Source: an uncultured Candidatus Babeliaceae bacterium
GTDB lineage: Bacteria > Babelota > Babeliae > Babelales > Babelaceae
Direction of reading: 5' to 3'
Length of the DNA stretch: 64,000 nt
Assembly: GCA_963704655.1 (NCBI GenBank)
Contig: OY969927.1
Location: 480,001 to 544,000, forward strand
Shown: positions 2,339 to 62,811 of the stretch, piece by piece
Layout: every line of letters starts with the position of its first letter
Position numbering within the stretch: position 1 is the first letter of the stretch
Translations under genes and position numbers: made by a program
The notes under the pieces: generated by a model
Told to the model about the DNA's origin: nothing
What the model saw: the letters and a program-made list of their open reading frames with translations, nothing else
Databases searched by the model: none

Positions 2339-2584
2339 GTGTCACCCTGATACTTCGACTGGTGTGTAAACGCACTATTTTTGCTTAGTACTAAAGACCA
2401 GTTGAACTTGCCTGCCTGCCGCCGTTTCATTCTTATGCTTCGACTTGCCTTTAGTATTGAGCTTGTCGAAATATCAGCACGTGGGTTTACTCCTGAGCCT
2501 GACGAAGGGCTCGCTCATCCTGATACTTCGACTAACGCTCAGCAGTAAAGGCTCGCTCATCCTGAGCTTGTCGAAGGGTTAGCG
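2339..2584. repeat. Left arm of GIY-YIG cassette 1: composite of nested REP-like hairpins
   Basis: 2546-2584 is a perfect 39-bp inverted repeat of 2977-3015; 2339-2358 is a perfect 20-bp inverted repeat of 3028-3047; 2432-2506 is identical to 8180-8254. Confidence 0.92.
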
Positions 2585-2658
2585 CGAATATTTAAATTAT
2601 ATTTAATAATAAAAATGTTATAATTAATCTAAGTTTAAATTTTATAAAGTGTAAGAAA

Positions 2659-2955
2659 ATGTCGGATCAAGTTTTTTATTTATATATCCTACAATGTAAC
2701 GACCAATCATATTATGTTGGCCATACTGATGATATCGAAAAGCGTATTGCTGATCATGCTGCCGGTCTGTGTGGTTATACTTCAAAAAGATTACCTGTAA
2801 AATTAATTCATATTGATCAATTTCAAGCGCGGGACGAAGCATTTATTGCTGAACATAAAATAAAAGGCTGGACTAGAAAGAAGAAAGAGGCTTTTATGCA
2901 AAAAAAATTTGATGAATTAATTAGGTTATCTAATTTTAAAAAAGAAATTATTTAA
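2659..2955 (+). CDS. Small stand-alone GIY-YIG nuclease (UPF0213/YhbQ-like)
   Basis: LYILQC..SYYVGHT..IEKRIADH..G...YT..RLPVKL..EAFIAEHKIKGWTRKKKEA. Confidence 0.92.
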   Translation: MSDQVFYLYILQCNDQSYYVGHTDDIEKRIADHAAGLCGYTSKRLPVKLIHIDQFQARDEAFIAEHKIKGWTRKKKEAFMQKKFDELIRLSNFKKEII

Positions 2956-2976
2956 ACTATATACTTTACGCTAATT

Positions 2977-3047
2977 CGCTAACCCTTCGACAAGCTCAGG
3001 ATGAGCGAGCCTTTAGTACTGAGTTTATCGAAGTATCAGGGTGACAC
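2977..3047. repeat. Right arm of GIY-YIG cassette 1
   Basis: Reverse complement of left-arm segments; contains the 25-bp unit ctttagtactgagtttatcgaagta (3011-3035). Confidence 0.92.
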
Positions 3048-3115
3048 CTTTAGCGCCACAAGAGCTTAGTACTCCCTACATAAACAAATGGGGTTCTATA
3101 ATACTTTTTTATTAA

Positions 3116-7457: not shown

Positions 7458-8087
7458 ATGAAAAACAAATTCTTATTAAAAAAAATTTTATCTATCCTGC
7501 CACTCATAGCAATTACCAGCATGTCTATTACAGAAATTATGGCAGATGCAGGAATCCCCGCAACGACCCTTAAAAAAGCACTGAATCTAACTGGAGTTGA
7601 CGAAACAACAGGCTGTACATTACTCAGTTCAGCAGGTGAGCTTCTGAAACCGCTCAGTTCAAGTGAAAAAGGTCGCGCATGTGTTACCTGCGGTGACAAT
7701 TGGGCAAAAGATGAGAAAAATAATGGTAAAGCACTTACCGTAGTTTGTGGAAAAACAGGATCCCCAACAGACAAACAAAAAGAAATTTTAACCAGGGCCC
7801 TTACTGATTGTGAACAATTAGCTTTGCTCTATCGCCGCTTTGATTTACTTTCTAAAGATCAACGAGTTCAAGCAGTATCAACCTGCTTTGGTAAATGGGA
7901 CCAACACCCTAAAGCTCGAAACGCTCTTATGAAACAACCAGTTGATCTGGATGAATCAAAAGAAGTAAAAGGTGATTTGCCAACATGGCAGGAAGTCTCA
8001 CAAATGCAAATTCTTGCTAAGGCTGATGCCAAAGGGCAAGTTACGCAAGAGATTACCGAAGAACAATTTAAAGCAGTTATTAAGTAA
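7458..8087 (+). CDS. Secreted Cys-rich protein with two HPKA-type repeats
   Basis: Signal peptide; CVTCGD.W shared with 6822..7385; WDQHPKA. Confidence 0.78.
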   Translation: MKNKFLLKKILSILPLIAITSMSITEIMADAGIPATTLKKALNLTGVDETTGCTLLSSAGELLKPLSSSEKGRACVTCGDNWAKDEKNNGKALTVVCGKTGSPTDKQKEILTRALTDCEQLALLYRRFDLLSKDQRVQAVSTCFGKWDQHPKARNALMKQPVDLDESKEVKGDLPTWQEVSQMQILAKADAKGQVTQEITEEQFKAVIK

Positions 8088-8171
8088 TACGTTAATTTAA
8101 TTACAACGTATGCTATCATTCTTGCGACAGCCTCGCACGTCTGAAAATAAAAAAAAGTTGATCTTGTCGCC

Positions 8172-8292
8172 GTGTCATCCTTATGCTTCGACTTGCCTTT
8201 AGTATTGAGCTTGTCGAAATATCAGCACGTGGGTTTACTCCTGAGCCTGACGAATGGCTCGCTCATCCTGAGCCTGTCGAAGGGTTAGCGAG
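8172..8292. repeat. Left arm of GIY-YIG cassette 2
   Basis: 8257-8292 is a 36-bp inverted repeat (1 mismatch) of 8664-8699; 75 bp are identical to the cassette 1 left arm. Confidence 0.92.
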
Positions 8293-8365
8293 CGCTATTA
8301 AATTTATTACTAAAATGATATAATATGTTGATATGTTTAATTTTAAATTTTAATTTTTATCTCGA

Positions 8366-8671
8366 ATGTTAAACCAGAATTTTTTTGTTTATATACTTGA
8401 ATGCAAAGATAAATCCTATTATGTTGGACATACTGATAATATTGAAAAACGTATTGCAGAACACGCTGAGGGTATGTGCGGATACACATTAAAGCAGCTA
8501 CCGGTAAAATTAATTTATATTGAGCAATTTCAAACTCGAGATGAAGCATTTATTGCTGAACATAAAATAAAAGGCTGGACTAGAAAGAAGAAAGAAGCGT
8601 TAATGCAGAAGAGATTTGATGAGTTAATTATATTATCAAATTTCAAAAAAAAATTTCCTGAAACTCGCTAA
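8366..8671 (+). CDS. Small stand-alone GIY-YIG nuclease (UPF0213/YhbQ-like), paralog of 2659..2955
   Basis: VYILEC..SYYVGHT..IEKRIAEH; about 75 of 98 residues identical to the first copy by manual alignment; the stop codon lies inside the right repeat arm. Confidence 0.92.
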   Translation: MLNQNFFVYILECKDKSYYVGHTDNIEKRIAEHAEGMCGYTLKQLPVKLIYIEQFQTRDEAFIAEHKIKGWTRKKKEALMQKRFDELIILSNFKKKFPETR

Positions 8672-8831
8672 CCCTTCGACAAGCTCAGGATGAGCGAGCA
8701 TTTAGTGCTGATATTTCGACAAGCTCAATACTAAAGGCAAATCGAAGCATCAGGATGAGCGGCGGCGGGCAGGCCCCTGGTACTGAGCAAAATAGTGCGT
8801 TTACGCACCAGTCGAAGTATCAGGATGACAC
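8664..8831. repeat. Right arm of GIY-YIG cassette 2 with nested hairpins
   Basis: Its reverse complement matches both 8172-8292 and the cassette 1 left arm. Confidence 0.92.
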
Positions 8832-8882
8832 CCTTTGCAGAAAAGTTTTTTTCTTAAATATATTTCATCGAACTTATGTTAC

Positions 8883-11405
8883 TTATAACTCTTTTAATTT
8901 ACATAAAATTTCATATGCCTGCCGCGGCGAGACCGTATCCAAATCAAGTTCATCAAGCAACTGTAACTTTTTATTATACATAACACTTTGATCACTTTGT
9001 GCAGCTATAAATGGCTTTTGCACAAAATGTGCTGGCGCATGTGCATATTGTGCAAGCAATACCCGCGCGCGCTCTATAACCGTTTTTGGCAAATGCGCTG
9101 CACGCGCAACTTGAATACCAAAACTTCCTTGTGCAACACCCGGCATAATTTTATGTAACAAAATAACCGTATCACCAACAGCTTTACTTGCTGCATGGTA
9201 ACAAATAATACCCGGCATAGTTGCTGATAATGTTGTTAGCTCATGGTAATGCGTGGCAAACAAACAAAATGGTTTAATCTCTTGATGCAGATATTCAACA
9301 ATTGCTTGTGCAAGAGCAAGCCCATCATAGGTGCTTGTTCCACGACCAACTTCATCTAATATAACCAAACTATTTTCTGTCGCATCACGGCAAATAAGCG
9401 CCGTCTCTTCCATCTCAACTAAAAAGGTACTTTTACCTTCAGCAAGATGGTCACCTGCACCGATTCGCGTAAAAATGCGATCAAGCAACGGCAATGTTGC
9501 ACATGCTGCAGGAACAAATGAACCCACTTGTGCCAAAATTTGTATAAGAGCCACTTGGCGCAAATAGGTAGATTTACCGCCCATATTAGGACCCGTAATA
9601 ATCCATGTCTTTTCACCAATACCCAACTGCGTATTATTGGGGACAAAAGAAATGGCCTGCGCCGAGCAGCGCATGCGCTTTTCAACAACCGGGTGCCTGC
9701 CATCAACAATTACCATCTGGTGCTTACCAGTAAATTCTGGGCGCACCCACTGATTATTCAACGCAACGTGCGCTAAACACGAAAATACATCAAGCTCTGC
9801 AAGCTCTTGTGCTAATATTCGCAATAAAGACAGGTACTGTTCAACATCACGAACTAACGCAGCAAAGAGTTGATTTTCAAGCTCTGTGCTACTACTTTCT
9901 GCACGATTAATATCATATTCAAGGTCTTTGAGTTCTTGCGTCGTAAAACGATCTCTATTGGTTAAGCTCTGTATTTTAATATAAGAAGGAGGCAATGCCT
10001 GGCTTTGTGCTTTTGAAACTTCAATGGCATAACCCGCTGCTTGAGAGTACCGAATTTTAAGCGTATTAATACCACTTTTTTGTTGTTCTTGACGTTCGAG
10101 TTCAAAGATTGCTTGCATCCCTTGTGTTGAAAGCAAGCGTAAACGATCAAGTTCAGAATGATACCCAGATGCAATTTTCCATTCGTGGTGCTGGTCAGTA
10201 TTAATTGCACGGGTTAAGAGTGTATATAAACTGGTAAGTAATTGCATATCACATGAAATAAATTTCTGTAATGCAGGAATATCGACAATACTTTCCATTA
10301 AAAAACGGTAATCGATAAACGTTGCACGGCGCAATGCCATGCGCCCAAGTATTCGTTCAAGGTCACCAATTTTTTTTAAATGGGTACGTACTAAATTTCT
10401 ATCAAAAGAATTTTTTACAAAAAATTCAACTCGATCTATCCGTTTTTCAATCGATGCTCTATCGACTAATGGTCGAATGAGCCACTTTTTCAAAAGACGT
10501 GAACCCATGCCCGTAATAGCTTCATCAAGTACTTCAAAAAGCGTATGCTTGCAAGATCCGTCATGCGCGTTACTTATGAGTTCTAAATTTTTTTGAGTTG
10601 CGGCATCAAGCTGTAAAAAATCCTGTGCTTGGTAAATCAGCAAACTTTTTTGCGCTTCAAATGAATGGGGCGCATTTTTTTTTATATACCCACCAAGAAG
10701 TTGTAATACGTTTTTTGCAATAGGCGTAACAGAATTTTCTTCACCCGAAAAACGGCCCATAGTCTGCAACCATTGTTGAAGATCGTTGTACACAAGTTGC
10801 TCATTAGTGAGTGTTGTAATAAATGCCCGCTGCCTACAAAACTGCTCTAACTGTTTACCACTTGGACTTGGCTCTAAAAGAATTTCTTGGGGAATAAATG
10901 CTGCAAGTTCTGCGTCGATTTTTTTTTCATCATACTCAAACTGGGTAAGGTAAAGTGCGCCTGCTAACATCTCGTAAAAGACCATTGCGACCGTGCCATC
11001 AACAACCACTAATGCGGCTATATAATGTGACGATTTACTATCAAGCAGTTTACTATCAACCAGTGTTCCGGGCGTAAAAACCTGCGTAACACCCCGCTCA
11101 ACTATTTTGCCCGGTTGTGGTGCTTCAAGCTGATCACAGATAACCACGCGAAAACCACCCTTTACCAGTTTTACTAAATAATGCTCAACCGTATGGCGCG
11201 GCACGCCGCATAGCGGAATCGGCTCATCGCCCATGGTTCCCCGTTGCGTAAGAACAATTCCCAAAAAAGCAGCAGCTTTACGTGCATCATCAAAGAAAAG
11301 TTCATAAAAATCCCCCACCTGAAAGAGAAGAAGGGCATCAGGAAACTGATTTTTAATATCAAAATACTGCCGCATCAGCGGAGTTAATACAACGTCTTGG
11401 GCCAT
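8883..11405 (-). CDS. mutS: DNA mismatch repair protein MutS
   Basis: TPLMRQY, GDFYELF, ITGPNMGGKST, STFLVEM, DEVGRGTST, FATHYHEL. Confidence 0.98.
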   Translation of the reverse strand: MAQDVVLTPLMRQYFDIKNQFPDALLLFQVGDFYELFFDDARKAAAFLGIVLTQRGTMGDEPIPLCGVPRHTVEHYLVKLVKGGFRVVICDQLEAPQPGKIVERGVTQVFTPGTLVDSKLLDSKSSHYIAALVVVDGTVAMVFYEMLAGALYLTQFEYDEKKIDAELAAFIPQEILLEPSPSGKQLEQFCRQRAFITTLTNEQLVYNDLQQWLQTMGRFSGEENSVTPIAKNVLQLLGGYIKKNAPHSFEAQKSLLIYQAQDFLQLDAATQKNLELISNAHDGSCKHTLFEVLDEAITGMGSRLLKKWLIRPLVDRASIEKRIDRVEFFVKNSFDRNLVRTHLKKIGDLERILGRMALRRATFIDYRFLMESIVDIPALQKFISCDMQLLTSLYTLLTRAINTDQHHEWKIASGYHSELDRLRLLSTQGMQAIFELERQEQQKSGINTLKIRYSQAAGYAIEVSKAQSQALPPSYIKIQSLTNRDRFTTQELKDLEYDINRAESSSTELENQLFAALVRDVEQYLSLLRILAQELAELDVFSCLAHVALNNQWVRPEFTGKHQMVIVDGRHPVVEKRMRCSAQAISFVPNNTQLGIGEKTWIITGPNMGGKSTYLRQVALIQILAQVGSFVPAACATLPLLDRIFTRIGAGDHLAEGKSTFLVEMEETALICRDATENSLVILDEVGRGTSTYDGLALAQAIVEYLHQEIKPFCLFATHYHELTTLSATMPGIICYHAASKAVGDTVILLHKIMPGVAQGSFGIQVARAAHLPKTVIERARVLLAQYAHAPAHFVQKPFIAAQSDQSVMYNKKLQLLDELDLDTVSPRQAYEILCKLKEL

Positions 11406-17863: not shown

Positions 17864-17918
17864 TCTTGCGCTTATCCTTTAGTCCTGAGCAAGGTCGAAG
17901 GGTTCAGATGGCAGGCCA
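17861..17918 (+). repeat. 58-bp post-tRNA repeat, copy 1
   Basis: 53/58 identical to 18064-18121; contains ctttagtcctgagcaaggtcgaaggg. Confidence 0.9.
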
Positions 17919-18066: not shown

Positions 18067-18121
18067 TCTTGCGTTTATCCTTTAGTCCTGAGCAGGGTCG
18101 AAGGATACAGATGGCGGGCCA
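18064..18121 (+). repeat. 58-bp post-tRNA repeat, copy 2
   Basis: 53/58 identical to 17861-17918. Confidence 0.9.
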
Positions 18122-18145: not shown

Positions 18146-18201
18146 GCCGCTCGTGGTGAGCGTAGTCAAAACAGTGCGCTTCGCACCATCCATGCGGCCG
18201 A
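18146..18201 (+). repeat. REP-like repeat interrupted by a ~20-bp mini-palindrome
   Basis: Matches 63877-63914 apart from an insert, aaaacagtgcgcttcgcacc. Confidence 0.85.
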
Positions 18202-22068: not shown

Positions 22069-22923
22069 TTAGAGCACACCGAGGGCTTCAAGCTGTCTAC
22101 GTATCTCTTTATAATTTTTGTCTTTTACGTGCAAACCGATCATCCCAAGTTTACGTGCTGCTACAACGTTTTCAAGTTGATCATCAATAAACACACACTC
22201 ACTTGGATCAAAACCGTGTAAGTTAATAATATATAAATAAGCTTGTGGATGTGGCTTATTATACCTAATAAGTGCTGACGCAATCATATCATTTGTATCA
22301 ATAACCTGTTTGAGCGCATGCCCCATTTGTGAATTCTTAAGATCTGCAAAACAAAGTGCATCGATATTAGAAAGTAAAAATTGGCGATGTTTGCCCCCAG
22401 CTTTTATATCTTGGGCCATTTTAAGCATCTGCTTAATCGGTTTTTTATGCTTATTTAAGCGTTTTGGCTGAAAAAACATACAGATAATCAGATTACGGAT
22501 AACACGATATTCGCGGCTATTTTTAAAAAAACCGGTACAATAAAGCTGCTTTAATGCCCCCATAATAAATGGTTTTTCAGCTACAGGGTCAAATCTGCCA
22601 TCCATCCAACGGCACATAAGTTCTGGTAGCTGCTCTAAATCGTTATTAAGCACCACGTGGCCATCAACAGGTTGTTGCGTTCCGCTGATCGCTACAAGCG
22701 TTTGGTGAAGGCGCTTTTCATGGCTTATGTATGCAGGTTTATCAAAAAGATGATAAAATACTGCATCAAAAAATCCTATCTCCTGGGCAACGCCTACGTG
22801 ATCAATCTTGGAAAGGACCCCGTGCAGATCATAAATTACGGCTTTAATAACGGCATTAAGAACACTCTGTGACAAGGCAAAAGCCATTAAAATGGTATAA
22901 TAACCCAATTTTCTTATATTCAC
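22069..22923 (-). CDS. HAD-superfamily hydrolase with an N-terminal signal peptide
   Basis: IYDLHGVL motif I, LLSN, KPHP, FIDD..ENV.AA..LG. Confidence 0.8.
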   Translation of the reverse strand: MNIRKLGYYTILMAFALSQSVLNAVIKAVIYDLHGVLSKIDHVGVAQEIGFFDAVFYHLFDKPAYISHEKRLHQTLVAISGTQQPVDGHVVLNNDLEQLPELMCRWMDGRFDPVAEKPFIMGALKQLYCTGFFKNSREYRVIRNLIICMFFQPKRLNKHKKPIKQMLKMAQDIKAGGKHRQFLLSNIDALCFADLKNSQMGHALKQVIDTNDMIASALIRYNKPHPQAYLYIINLHGFDPSECVFIDDQLENVVAARKLGMIGLHVKDKNYKEIRRQLEALGVL

Positions 22924-23076
22924 GATAACCCCGAATAATTATTATTTTTTATTTAAATTATGCTATTAATTATATCTGAATACAATTTATTGTCAATTTG
23001 AATATCCGCCAATAAAATTTAAAAAATACGCTCTCAATGCTTGTATTAAAAAGCCATATGTCTTACGCTTATAACT

Positions 23077-24096
23077 ATGGAAAACTTTGATAAACCGCTT
23101 ATGACATTGGCGCTGCATGAAGCGCCAGAAGAGACATCCTACGATTTTCATCCAAAAACATTTGATGATTATCTAGGGCAAAAAGAGCTGAAGACAAAAC
23201 TACAGCTTTATTGTCATGCTGCAAAATTACGTAATGAGCCCCTCGATCATCTGCTTCTTTTTGGGCCTCCCGGCCTGGGTAAAACCACCCTTGCATTAAT
23301 AATGTCACATGTTATGAATGTGGGCATTAAAATCTGTAATGGCCCGATGCTTGAACGCACGGGCGACATGGTTTCATTATTAAGCTCACTTGAGCCACGC
23401 GATATTCTTTTTATCGATGAAATTCACCGTATGCCCACAGCAGTAGAAGAAGTTTTATATAACGCTATGGAACATTTTCGTGTTGATGTTATAGTCGGCC
23501 AAGGGCCCGGTGCAAAATCTATTAATCTTCCCATTCACCCTTTTACGCTTATCGGCGCAACCACCAAAAGCGGCATGCTTTCTGCGCCATTACAAAGCAG
23601 ATTCGGCATTAACGAACGGTTAGATTACTATTCTGACGAAGATCTACAAGCGATCATTTTACAAAGCGCCAAGTATTTAGACCTCAAACTCTCGCCTGAA
23701 TCAGCACTTACCATTGCAGGCTGCGCACGCGGCACGCCACGCATTGCAAAAAAACTATTGCGTAGGGTACGTGATTTTGCACAGATTCATAACAAAAACC
23801 ATGCTACAGACCTACTTGTTGAAGAATCACTCAGATTTTTAGGCATCGATACCCAAGGGCTCACCAAACTTGATCACAAGATTATTAACACTCTTTTAGA
23901 TAATAACGGCGGACCATTGGGCCTTGAAACACTGGCGTCACTTGTTGGCGAAGACAGCCAAACCATAGAAGAAGTCTATGAGCCCTTTTTAATGCGAAAA
24001 GGCTACCTTGAACGCACCCCCCGCGGCCGGCAAATCCCCAACAAAAAATTCCAAAGCTTAATTATCCAGAAAACTGGCCAAAACAGCCTATTTTGA
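23077..24096 (+). CDS. ruvB: Holliday junction branch migration helicase RuvB
   Basis: GPPGLGKTTLA, FIDEIHR, IGATT, RGTPRIA, YEPFL, RTPRGR. Confidence 0.97.
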   Translation: MENFDKPLMTLALHEAPEETSYDFHPKTFDDYLGQKELKTKLQLYCHAAKLRNEPLDHLLLFGPPGLGKTTLALIMSHVMNVGIKICNGPMLERTGDMVSLLSSLEPRDILFIDEIHRMPTAVEEVLYNAMEHFRVDVIVGQGPGAKSINLPIHPFTLIGATTKSGMLSAPLQSRFGINERLDYYSDEDLQAIILQSAKYLDLKLSPESALTIAGCARGTPRIAKKLLRRVRDFAQIHNKNHATDLLVEESLRFLGIDTQGLTKLDHKIINTLLDNNGGPLGLETLASLVGEDSQTIEEVYEPFLMRKGYLERTPRGRQIPNKKFQSLIIQKTGQNSLF

Positions 24097-61900: not shown

Positions 61901-62791
61901 ATGAAACAAACCAGTCTATTACTATTTCTTTTTATTATTACTACCACCCACTATCTGCATAGTAGATCTGTGGTCTACAACTTCCGTATCGCCCAAATAA
62001 CCAAACAACACCTATTTGAAACGGCCAATCAACGGAAATATACCGTAATCGGCTTACTTTTTGATGAGGTTTCACAAAAAAGATATGACGGGATTCATCG
62101 AAATTATTTCGGTGGCTTAGGGACATTTATTTATACTATTGAAGATTATTTTTTTAGAGCAGATTTTGCTGTGTCACTTGTCCAACAGAAAAGCTTTGAT
62201 TCACATTTTGCTGATACACAAACTGATGATTTTCTTTTTACCTTCGGAAAAAATTTTAAAATCAGTGAAAATGCAGATATAACCCTATCAGGATTATTCG
62301 GTGTGCCAACGCATCCGGTTTATACGCTTATAAAGCCGGAGTTCGGCTTTGGTCAATTTGGATTAGGACTTCAACTTGATAGTGTTTATAAAATTAATCC
62401 CATAAATTCATTAGTATTTGGTGGTCGATATATATATTTTATTCCACGATGCGCACAGAATTCTGAAAAAAACTGCTTCAAATTTACTCAAGGCAATCTC
62501 ATAGATTTTCTTGTTGCAAGTAAAAATGTCTGGGGAAAACATGGTCTTGAAGTTGGCTTTACGCCCAGGTTTGCCTTTGGAGCAAAAATCTGCCCATATC
62601 TTGATGATATCATTGAAAAAAGCAATTACATAAGAACCACCTGGTACGCAGTGTACCAATACAAATTCATGATCAATAATGTAAAAAATAGATTATTGTT
62701 TAATATAGCTAGTGGATTTGATGCTACAGGTAAAAAATACGGTAATAAATATATCGTTTTTATCTGGGGCGCCTGGGATATTAAATTTTAA
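61901..62791 (+). CDS. Putative outer-membrane beta-barrel protein
   Basis: Signal peptide, aromatic/Gly-rich amphipathic strands, C-terminal WDIKF. Confidence 0.55.
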   Translation: MKQTSLLLFLFIITTTHYLHSRSVVYNFRIAQITKQHLFETANQRKYTVIGLLFDEVSQKRYDGIHRNYFGGLGTFIYTIEDYFFRADFAVSLVQQKSFDSHFADTQTDDFLFTFGKNFKISENADITLSGLFGVPTHPVYTLIKPEFGFGQFGLGLQLDSVYKINPINSLVFGGRYIYFIPRCAQNSEKNCFKFTQGNLIDFLVASKNVWGKHGLEVGFTPRFAFGAKICPYLDDIIEKSNYIRTTWYAVYQYKFMINNVKNRLLFNIASGFDATGKKYGNKYIVFIWGAWDIKF

Positions 62792-62811
62792 AATAGTGCG
62801 TTTACGCACCA
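62790..62811 (+). repeat. 22-bp mini-palindrome identical to 8789-8810
   Basis: aaaatagtgcgtttacgcacca. Confidence 0.85.

Follow-up and report, generated by a model that had tools for sequence, protein, structure and literature searches.

The window, a 64,000-nt stretch of DNA (positions 480,001 to 544,000 of contig OY969927.1, assembly GCA_963704655.1), comes from an uncultured Candidatus Babeliaceae bacterium whose genome is a single 1.298-Mb contig, 96% complete. It carries two mini GIY-YIG nuclease genes, in element 1 (2339–3048) and element 2 (8172–8831), together with short hairpin repeats of one family, whose subtypes we denote by letters. The features on which the argument draws are as follows, in window coordinates.

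2436–2481, − strand: third copy of the composite (nested) unit, in the left arm of GIY-YIG element 1; inner unit at 2449–2473 (+).
2483–2509, + strand: F-type unit (TTTACTCC tag), with a twin at 8231–8257.
2510–2586, + strand: left half of an A unit (2510–2523), inverted D-type unit (2524–2550), then G and a complete A unit (2551–2586).
2659–2955, + strand: mini GIY-YIG nuclease gene 1 (98 aa), with inverted A units on both sides.
3011–3035, + strand: D-type unit adjoining an inverted A unit (2976–3009) and with TCAGGG next to it, which is a GTCA-tagged left half read in reverse.
8184–8229, − strand: second copy of the composite, in the left arm of GIY-YIG element 2; inner unit at 8197–8221 (+).
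8366–8671, + strand: gene 2 for a mini GIY-YIG nuclease (101 aa), between A units 8258–8292 (+) and 8664–8698 (−).
8700–8711, + strand: left part of a split host, a small D-type unit (TTTAG tag, stem TGC, TGA), which rejoins 8737–8749 on removal of 8712–8736.
8712–8736, − strand: inner D-type unit of 25 nt with CTTTAG tag, TAT/ATA stem and TGAG...CGAA core; it runs opposite in sense to its host and is identical to 2449–2473 and 8197–8221.
8737–8749, + strand: remaining, right-hand part of the split host, made up of G, loop CAAA, TCGAA and stem GCA.
8778–8822, + strand: D-like unit with another kind of mini hairpin, of 20 nt, in its loop (8789–8808); counterpart at about 2340–2400 (−).
17877–17902, + strand: CTTTAG-tagged unit directly after a tRNA gene, placed at the TGA^G of another kind of hairpin, one with no CGAA half; a further copy (18080–18105) directly follows the other of two tRNA genes.

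Both window proteins consist of the GIY-YIG domain only (Pfam GIY-YIG, E = 2e-14 and 4e-17, residues 6–76). Among solved structures, those nearest to them are 1zg2 and 1ywl, both UPF0213 proteins, and against NCBIfam the window proteins gave only a sub-threshold match. Each of the five clear mini GIY-YIG genes of the genome is framed by inverted units of some subtype. A Y1 transposase (PF01797; IS200/RAYT) was not found in this single-contig genome, in a search whose positive control was detected in 6 of 14 genomes. Element 1 is absent between argS and lnt in the genus relatives G003 and G004, where the two genes abut, and is present there in the congener G001; the site of element 2 is empty in G004, where the gene upstream of mutS abuts mutS. 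In the congener's argS–lnt element (G001:C6, ~22400–23100), a 23-nt AT-rich hairpin replaces the loop of the framing A units. On both arms of both window elements the A units face the gene and the outer D units face outwards, so that on each strand, in the folding sense, an A unit lies on the 5′ side of the gene and a D unit on its 3′ side.

[quoted passage not shown] 2025 (PMC11893778). Ssn systems are further marked by a protein of the cd10448 clade and by cleavage that is strand-specific. The window elements resemble the Ssn/NTS system as that text describes it in that a small single-domain GIY-YIG gene lies between inverted, oriented hairpin repeats that are also dispersed in the genome; the window proteins, at 98 and 101 aa, are likewise of the single-domain, ~90–100-residue kind. 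They differ in that the window family has a TGAG/CGAA core with a G.A tandem, unlike the Ssn/SRM repeats in the available text (PMC11893778), and in that the window nuclease is nearest to UPF0213 structures. The degenerate SRM pattern given in the available text (PMC11893778) had four matches in the genome (0–2 in shuffles), none of them belonging to the TGAG/CGAA family. The matches to the SRM pattern include three perfect hairpins with a GTCAT tag; at genome 421102 the left half of a GTCAT-tagged unit stands before a D unit.

The repeat family consists of 25–35-nt hairpin units in which the core, YTGAG-loop-(T)CGAAR, is conserved and the flanking stems covary. We found the core pattern 12 times in the window (2.08 expected, at most 6 in 100 shuffles) and 147 times genome-wide, and units with 4/4 flanking pairs number 88 in the genome versus 4 in the shuffled genome. 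Flank positions 1 and 2 are paired in 133/147 and 131/147 units (shuffle means 80 and 64, maxima 95 and 79), in a count that applied no stem filter and includes several pair types, the inner G–C being invariant owing to the search pattern. Because the flank positions are paired above the level of their shuffled partners, covariation supports the hairpin with an internal G.A/A.G tandem that the preliminary description had proposed. The stability it attributed to this hairpin did not survive: with a nearest-neighbor model for DNA the 25-mer has a minimum free energy of 0 on both strands, so that no stable hairpin is predicted. The composites gave folding z-scores of −0.06 to −0.23. Given that the free 25-mer has no predicted fold and the composite z-scores are near zero, any hairpin structure is probably held by protein. 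Rfam at gathering thresholds reported two tRNAs in the window and zero RNA families at the repeats, and the orientation of the units showed no replication-strand bias (46/37 and 22/25). The 5′ tag of the A units is complementary to the core TGAGC (GCTCA-TCC-TGAGC, for example at 8664–8698), and the predicted fold favors this mini hairpin over the long one; the D tags are likewise complementary to the core (TCAG/TTAG versus CTGA).

At 8700–8749 one unit of the family sits within another. The 25-nt unit at 8712–8736 (−) is complete and splits its sibling (8700–8711 plus 8737–8749) between TGA (8709–8711) and G (8737). What remains on its removal has the TTTAG tag, the paired stem of 3 nt (TGC/GCA) and the TGAG...TCGAA core of a family unit, and the junctions show no duplication; the nesting first noted at this site is therefore real. 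A strict deletion scan that demanded 4/4 flanking pairs recovered 8712–8736 along with the identical inserts at 2449–2473 and 8197–8221, all inverted and duplication-free. The 50-nt composite itself, as had also been claimed, is bordered in this way, by TGA and, at its other end, by G. A contig from an independent sequencing run covers 8094–8292 with zero differences; over 7900–9100 the public reads of four runs gave contigs only, fragmented at the repeats, and none joins across 8712–8736, a result that is neutral as to excision.

These three inserts count as one propagated event, because the identical insert lies each time in a near-identical block of ~80 columns or in its inverted-repeat partner: the left arms of the two elements (2425–2600 and 8172–8305) are almost identical over that length, composite included, in an alignment of the paralogous arms, and 8700–8749, in the right arm of element 2, is the inverted-repeat partner of the composite. 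The preliminary description had listed five recurring junctions. All of them do have a small unit, in inverted sense, between TGA and G, but three reduce to this single event, and at the two others (2524–2550 and 3011–3035) the TGA|unit|G junction is present while deletion restores no host unit. There the left side is the left half of an A-type unit only, with a complete A unit next. Relative to the paralogous arm at 8258–8292, the site at 2524 has gained 42 bp, made up of the 27-nt unit and a 15-bp direct duplication of the host left half. Thus, the claim that insertion leaves no target duplication holds in the complete-host cases but is not general.

To what extent the junction is a rule can be read from the whole genome. 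The small-unit pattern has 25 matches, comprising 15 D-type, 5 F-type and 3 tRNA-linked units and 2 chance matches. TGA directly precedes 13/15 D-type units (the exceptions follow CGG and AGC), and the base after the unit is G in 10/15 and A in 5/15; D-type units usually have the left half of some larger unit (..CATCCTGA) on their left. Outside the window, complete hosts of A type and F type lie at genome 238655 and 958343, so that hosts of three subtypes are filled in this genome. The F-type case has an internal comparison, an empty paralog 7 kb away at genome 951424 that differs from the filled 958343 by exactly 27 nt. Between hosts of this genome the inner units vary in loop length and at several positions; if they share descent at all, it is not recent. 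We saw no solo D-type unit, that is, none outside a host or half-host context, in the window genome, G001, or five proteobacterial genomes. A relaxed deletion scan restored a host for 9/130 units, all 9 inverted, but it is weak as a control because 650 random positions gave 10; the argument rests on the paralogs and the flank counts.

Unit types other than D follow nesting rules of their own: 8/13 E-type units lie after TGAG in B/C-type hosts. Nesting reaches four levels outside the window, at genome ~375780–375900 and 794440–794560 (a C host containing an inverted E unit, containing a forward E unit, containing a mini hairpin in its loop), and the E-unit orientation flips at every level. A third copy of the tRNA-linked type, at genome 97840, has a 16-bp direct duplication on its flanks that ends in TGA.

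Beyond this genome, the TGA-plus-D pattern was found among 41 relatives only in the window genome and one congener (G001), in which both D-type copies follow TGA. A scan of one genome per species with a generic nested pattern, in which the left junction was fixed by the search pattern, gave matches that include, among those listed, Proteobacteria, Bacteroidota, Chloroflexota, Cyanobacteria and others. Among the 122 matches listed, the inner 3-nt stem is fully paired in 72, compared with ~5% by chance, and 28 have a CTRAAG tail with G after it; the number of matches itself does not lend itself to comparison with a rough chance estimate. In five Beta/Gammaproteobacterial genomes (G041–G045) we picked units by the inner sequence alone, disregarding the flanks: 21/21 are inverted within the host hairpin, TGA stands on the left in 18/21 (the other three are one base off), and G stands on the right in 20/21. 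In these genomes and in that of the window, the junctions are fixed rather than scattered. At least five host stem types occur in one proteobacterial genome, and across the five genomes empty hosts number 121, 55, 75, 7, and 81 versus 7, 1, 9, 1, and 3 filled ones. A Methylobacter genome encodes a nuclease 50% identical to that of the window and framed by the same host units; the host and longer flanks are common to 6/7 of its composite copies. We conclude that the place and sense of the nested unit are a rule of the repeat family, found in distant bacterial phyla, and that, with complete hosts of three subtypes here and 21/21 proteobacterial units, the rule is independent of any one local event.

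Filled and empty hosts differ also in their loops. The restored hosts of the window genome carry atypical loops in place of CYTG, namely CAAA or CAAG in D, CAAG in F, and CGAG in A hosts. At the proteobacterial loci the standard loop GC[CT]TG is seen in 0/43 distinct filled hosts versus 30/33 empty hosts of the same loci. The proteobacterial filled hosts mostly have GC+N+TTG, one atypical loop occurs with up to six host stems, and none of the filled-host loops is apparently derived from the commonest empty loop, GCCTG. We had considered a "flipped loop" (CAAG/CGAG when filled, CTTG/CTCG when empty) and dropped it as a general rule, given the GC+N+TTG loops of most proteobacterial filled hosts.

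Comparison of two Ideonella genomes, whose flanks are 89–96% identical, shows how such arrays change. One array is wholly absent in one genome, and an orthologous array begins in one genome with a composite but in the second with an ordinary unit built on other stems. That very composite, host included, recurs at a different, non-orthologous locus of the second genome. In a third kind of difference (G045, L159 ~1480–1640 versus L203), an array with a nested composite replaces an Ala/Pro-rich coding linker in a region that is otherwise 91% identical between two species, so the units are able to sit in frame in genes.

The reading we favor, at a probability of roughly 0.45, is that unit and loop are copied together between hairpins of the family through the shared core, in a homing-like manner, and that this copying is started by breaks of an Ssn-like nuclease that do not fall at TGA^G. 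In this reading the CTTTAG-tagged unit is a dependent module, housed only inside or against the left half of another family unit, in every case inverted and between TGA and G or A. The module, with the adjacent atypical host loop, would be copied from a filled hairpin into other family hairpins by repair synthesis or template switching, with the core halves (..CTGA / TCGAA..) serving as short homology, and the overall process would amount to homing-like gene conversion. Breaks made by a hairpin-specific single-strand nuclease would initiate it; if the cut is placed as in SsnA, it would fall a few nucleotides 5′ of the folded unit, which on the strand where the inner unit folds means at or near its tag end and not at the host-strand TGA^G. 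Events that use homology on the left only would account for the order in which a left half precedes the unit and a complete A unit follows, the 15-bp duplication included. Whole composites spread too.

Copying of unit plus loop fits best because the loop accompanies the insert, solo copies are lacking, and the host stems are varied. We count in favor of a nuclease role the five framed mini GIY-YIG genes, the Methylobacter homologue, the missing Y1 transposase, and the upstream cutting of SsnA, and on this analogy the nuclease would most likely be the source of the breaks. Several points weigh on the other side. The homology arms that the model has to use are only ~5–12 nt long. At orthologous sites in five genus relatives and in the two Ideonella genomes we found no gain of a single unit in a pre-existing host, the array being missing or the unit a different one, and the case for copying is weakened because no single such event was caught between related genomes. 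The steps that depend on folding are weakened because the 25-mer is not predicted to fold alone, and the cut geometry of SsnA may not transfer, since the nuclease is nearest to UPF0213 and the units fall outside the published SRM consensus. If the copying model is correct, homing would here act on dispersed targets and carry no cargo gene.

A further proposal, which we hold to be somewhat unlikely, makes the CTTTAG unit an obligate "parasite of a parasite" whose inverted placement would give a second, 3′-side cut, with A and D units delimiting a single strand that is released and copied. The reasoning is that, if the nuclease cuts only 5′ of a hairpin folded on the strand in question, an inverted unit would supply the 3′-side cut for each strand. 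Such a unit would be among the smallest known site- and orientation-specific mobile DNA modules, entering only hairpins of the Ssn-like family, in several phyla; delimitation of the released strand by A and D would explain the multiplication of both SRM-type repeats and nuclease genes.

The composite may alternatively be one evolved structural unit, for example a hairpin recognizable on both strands, that multiplies whole while the inner unit is immobile by itself. The absence of solo inner units, the composite that recurs intact at two unrelated Ideonella loci, and the 6/7 Methylobacter copies with the same host and longer flanks all agree with this, as does the A-inward, D-outward order on both arms, which provides one of each per strand. 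Spread of whole composites does happen, on the Ideonella evidence, and could explain many copies. We nevertheless consider this reading unlikely. A single genome has at least five host stem types and one loop is found on as many as six, so that descent alone would require repeated compensatory double changes; moreover, the filled and empty F-type paralogs differ by exactly the unit, and contexts with only the left half exist.

The preliminary description had instead inferred a structure-directed nuclease that nicks the folded host at TGA^G, immediately 3′ of the G.A/A.G tandem, as part of a nick-and-insert mechanism. On such a model the 25-nt unit is ligated in and each filled host is an independent insertion. 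The junction is indeed exact and, in complete-host cases, duplication-free; the same bond is used in hosts of different stems, even in the tRNA-linked hairpin that has no CGAA half, and the one fixed orientation is compatible with a single-strand mechanism. Independent insertion into ordinary hosts, however, predicts the standard loop in filled hosts, where it was seen in 0/43 with no loop derived from GCCTG, and some sites have the 15-bp duplication. The one whole composite at non-orthologous loci also leaves this mechanism unsupported, and GIY-YIG enzymes hydrolyze DNA without rejoining it. The only characterized relatives (SsnA), moreover, cut a few nucleotides upstream of the hairpin and not within it, so TGA^G finds no support as the nuclease cut site. 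We therefore regard nicking and insertion at this bond as improbable; homology and descent, and not a cut there, may be what preserves the junction.

Replication template-switching between quasi-palindromes, which would make and spread the nested form as a by-product with no dedicated nuclease, agrees with the perfect complementarity of the inverted inner unit's arms to the same host arms, with a predicted composite fold that pairs inner TTCGA with host TCGAA, and with arrays that are highly dynamic between close relatives, but is very unlikely given that it leaves unexplained both the CTTTAG/CTTCAG tag and covarying inner stem conserved across phyla and the constant association with mini GIY-YIG genes.

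The favored copying model has a partial precedent in GIY-YIG homing, for example by I-TevI, in which a break near the target is repaired by copying the insert from a filled allele; the cut may lie away from the site of insertion, and the target is disrupted by the insert. Unlike in I-TevI homing, the present case would involve a gene-free cargo of 25 nt, hundreds of dispersed repeats as targets, very short homology, and a nuclease whose gene lies elsewhere. Insertion by Y1 HUH transposases is similarly orientation-specific and duplication-free and takes place on the 3′ side of a short, fixed sequence that adjoins a hairpin, but a Y1 enzyme was not found in the window genome. The arrangement is also unlike the REP/RAYT system (REPtron), a Y1 transposase flanked by GTAG-tagged REPs, as PF01797 was not found.

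Small dispersed repeats of heterocystous cyanobacteria, studied by Elhai et al. in 2008, reportedly nest within one another, and to our knowledge these repeats have no nuclease partner. [quoted passage not shown] The CGTC- and GTAG-tagged REPs, BIMEs, and REPINs resemble the window family as short tagged palindromic repeats in mosaics, and REP dimers have been described inside other palindromes, the empty form not being found; for CGTC-type REPs a dedicated transposase is not known, in the available text of Di Nocera et al. 2013 (PMC3733652). What sets the window family apart from the REPs, BIMEs, and REPINs of that text is a single inverted unit at one phosphodiester bond of a unit of its own family. 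Nested small repeats are thus not new in kind, as REP dimers in palindromes (PMC3733652) and SDR5 in HIP1 (PMC4390886) show in the text available for each.

We found neither this module, nor its exact site, nor its cross-phylum spread in the literature searched, and six core strings from the genome had no match there; the literature on small dispersed repeats and follow-ups of Ssn yielded nothing on nesting. The word "nested" is absent from the available main text of Chenal et al. 2025 (PMC11893778), supplements aside. The authors note there a likeness to insertion sequences and to REP/RAYT and raise the idea of a mobile element (PMC11893778). Ssn nucleases were described in 2025, and the multiplication of their hairpin repeats was left open in that text (PMC11893778). 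The finding here is a precise and conserved anatomical rule (one bond, one orientation, never solo, a companion loop) that spans from a protist-associated Dependentiae genome to free-living Proteobacteria, and it makes the question of repeat multiplication addressable by oligonucleotide and transfer assays. For annotation it is a warning that arrays of this kind, even within coding linkers, are layered repeats and not genes.

The 20-nt mini hairpin seen in some loops (an A-run, GTGCG, loop, CGCAC) is unrelated to the units. It has 17 copies in the genome, those in the window lying at 8789–8808, 2362–2382, 18168–18186, and 62790–62809. It occurs in unique DNA, in the loops of D/E units, and in the right arm of B units, in direct sense in 7/7 hosts, and in its behavior it resembles another very small mobile repeat.
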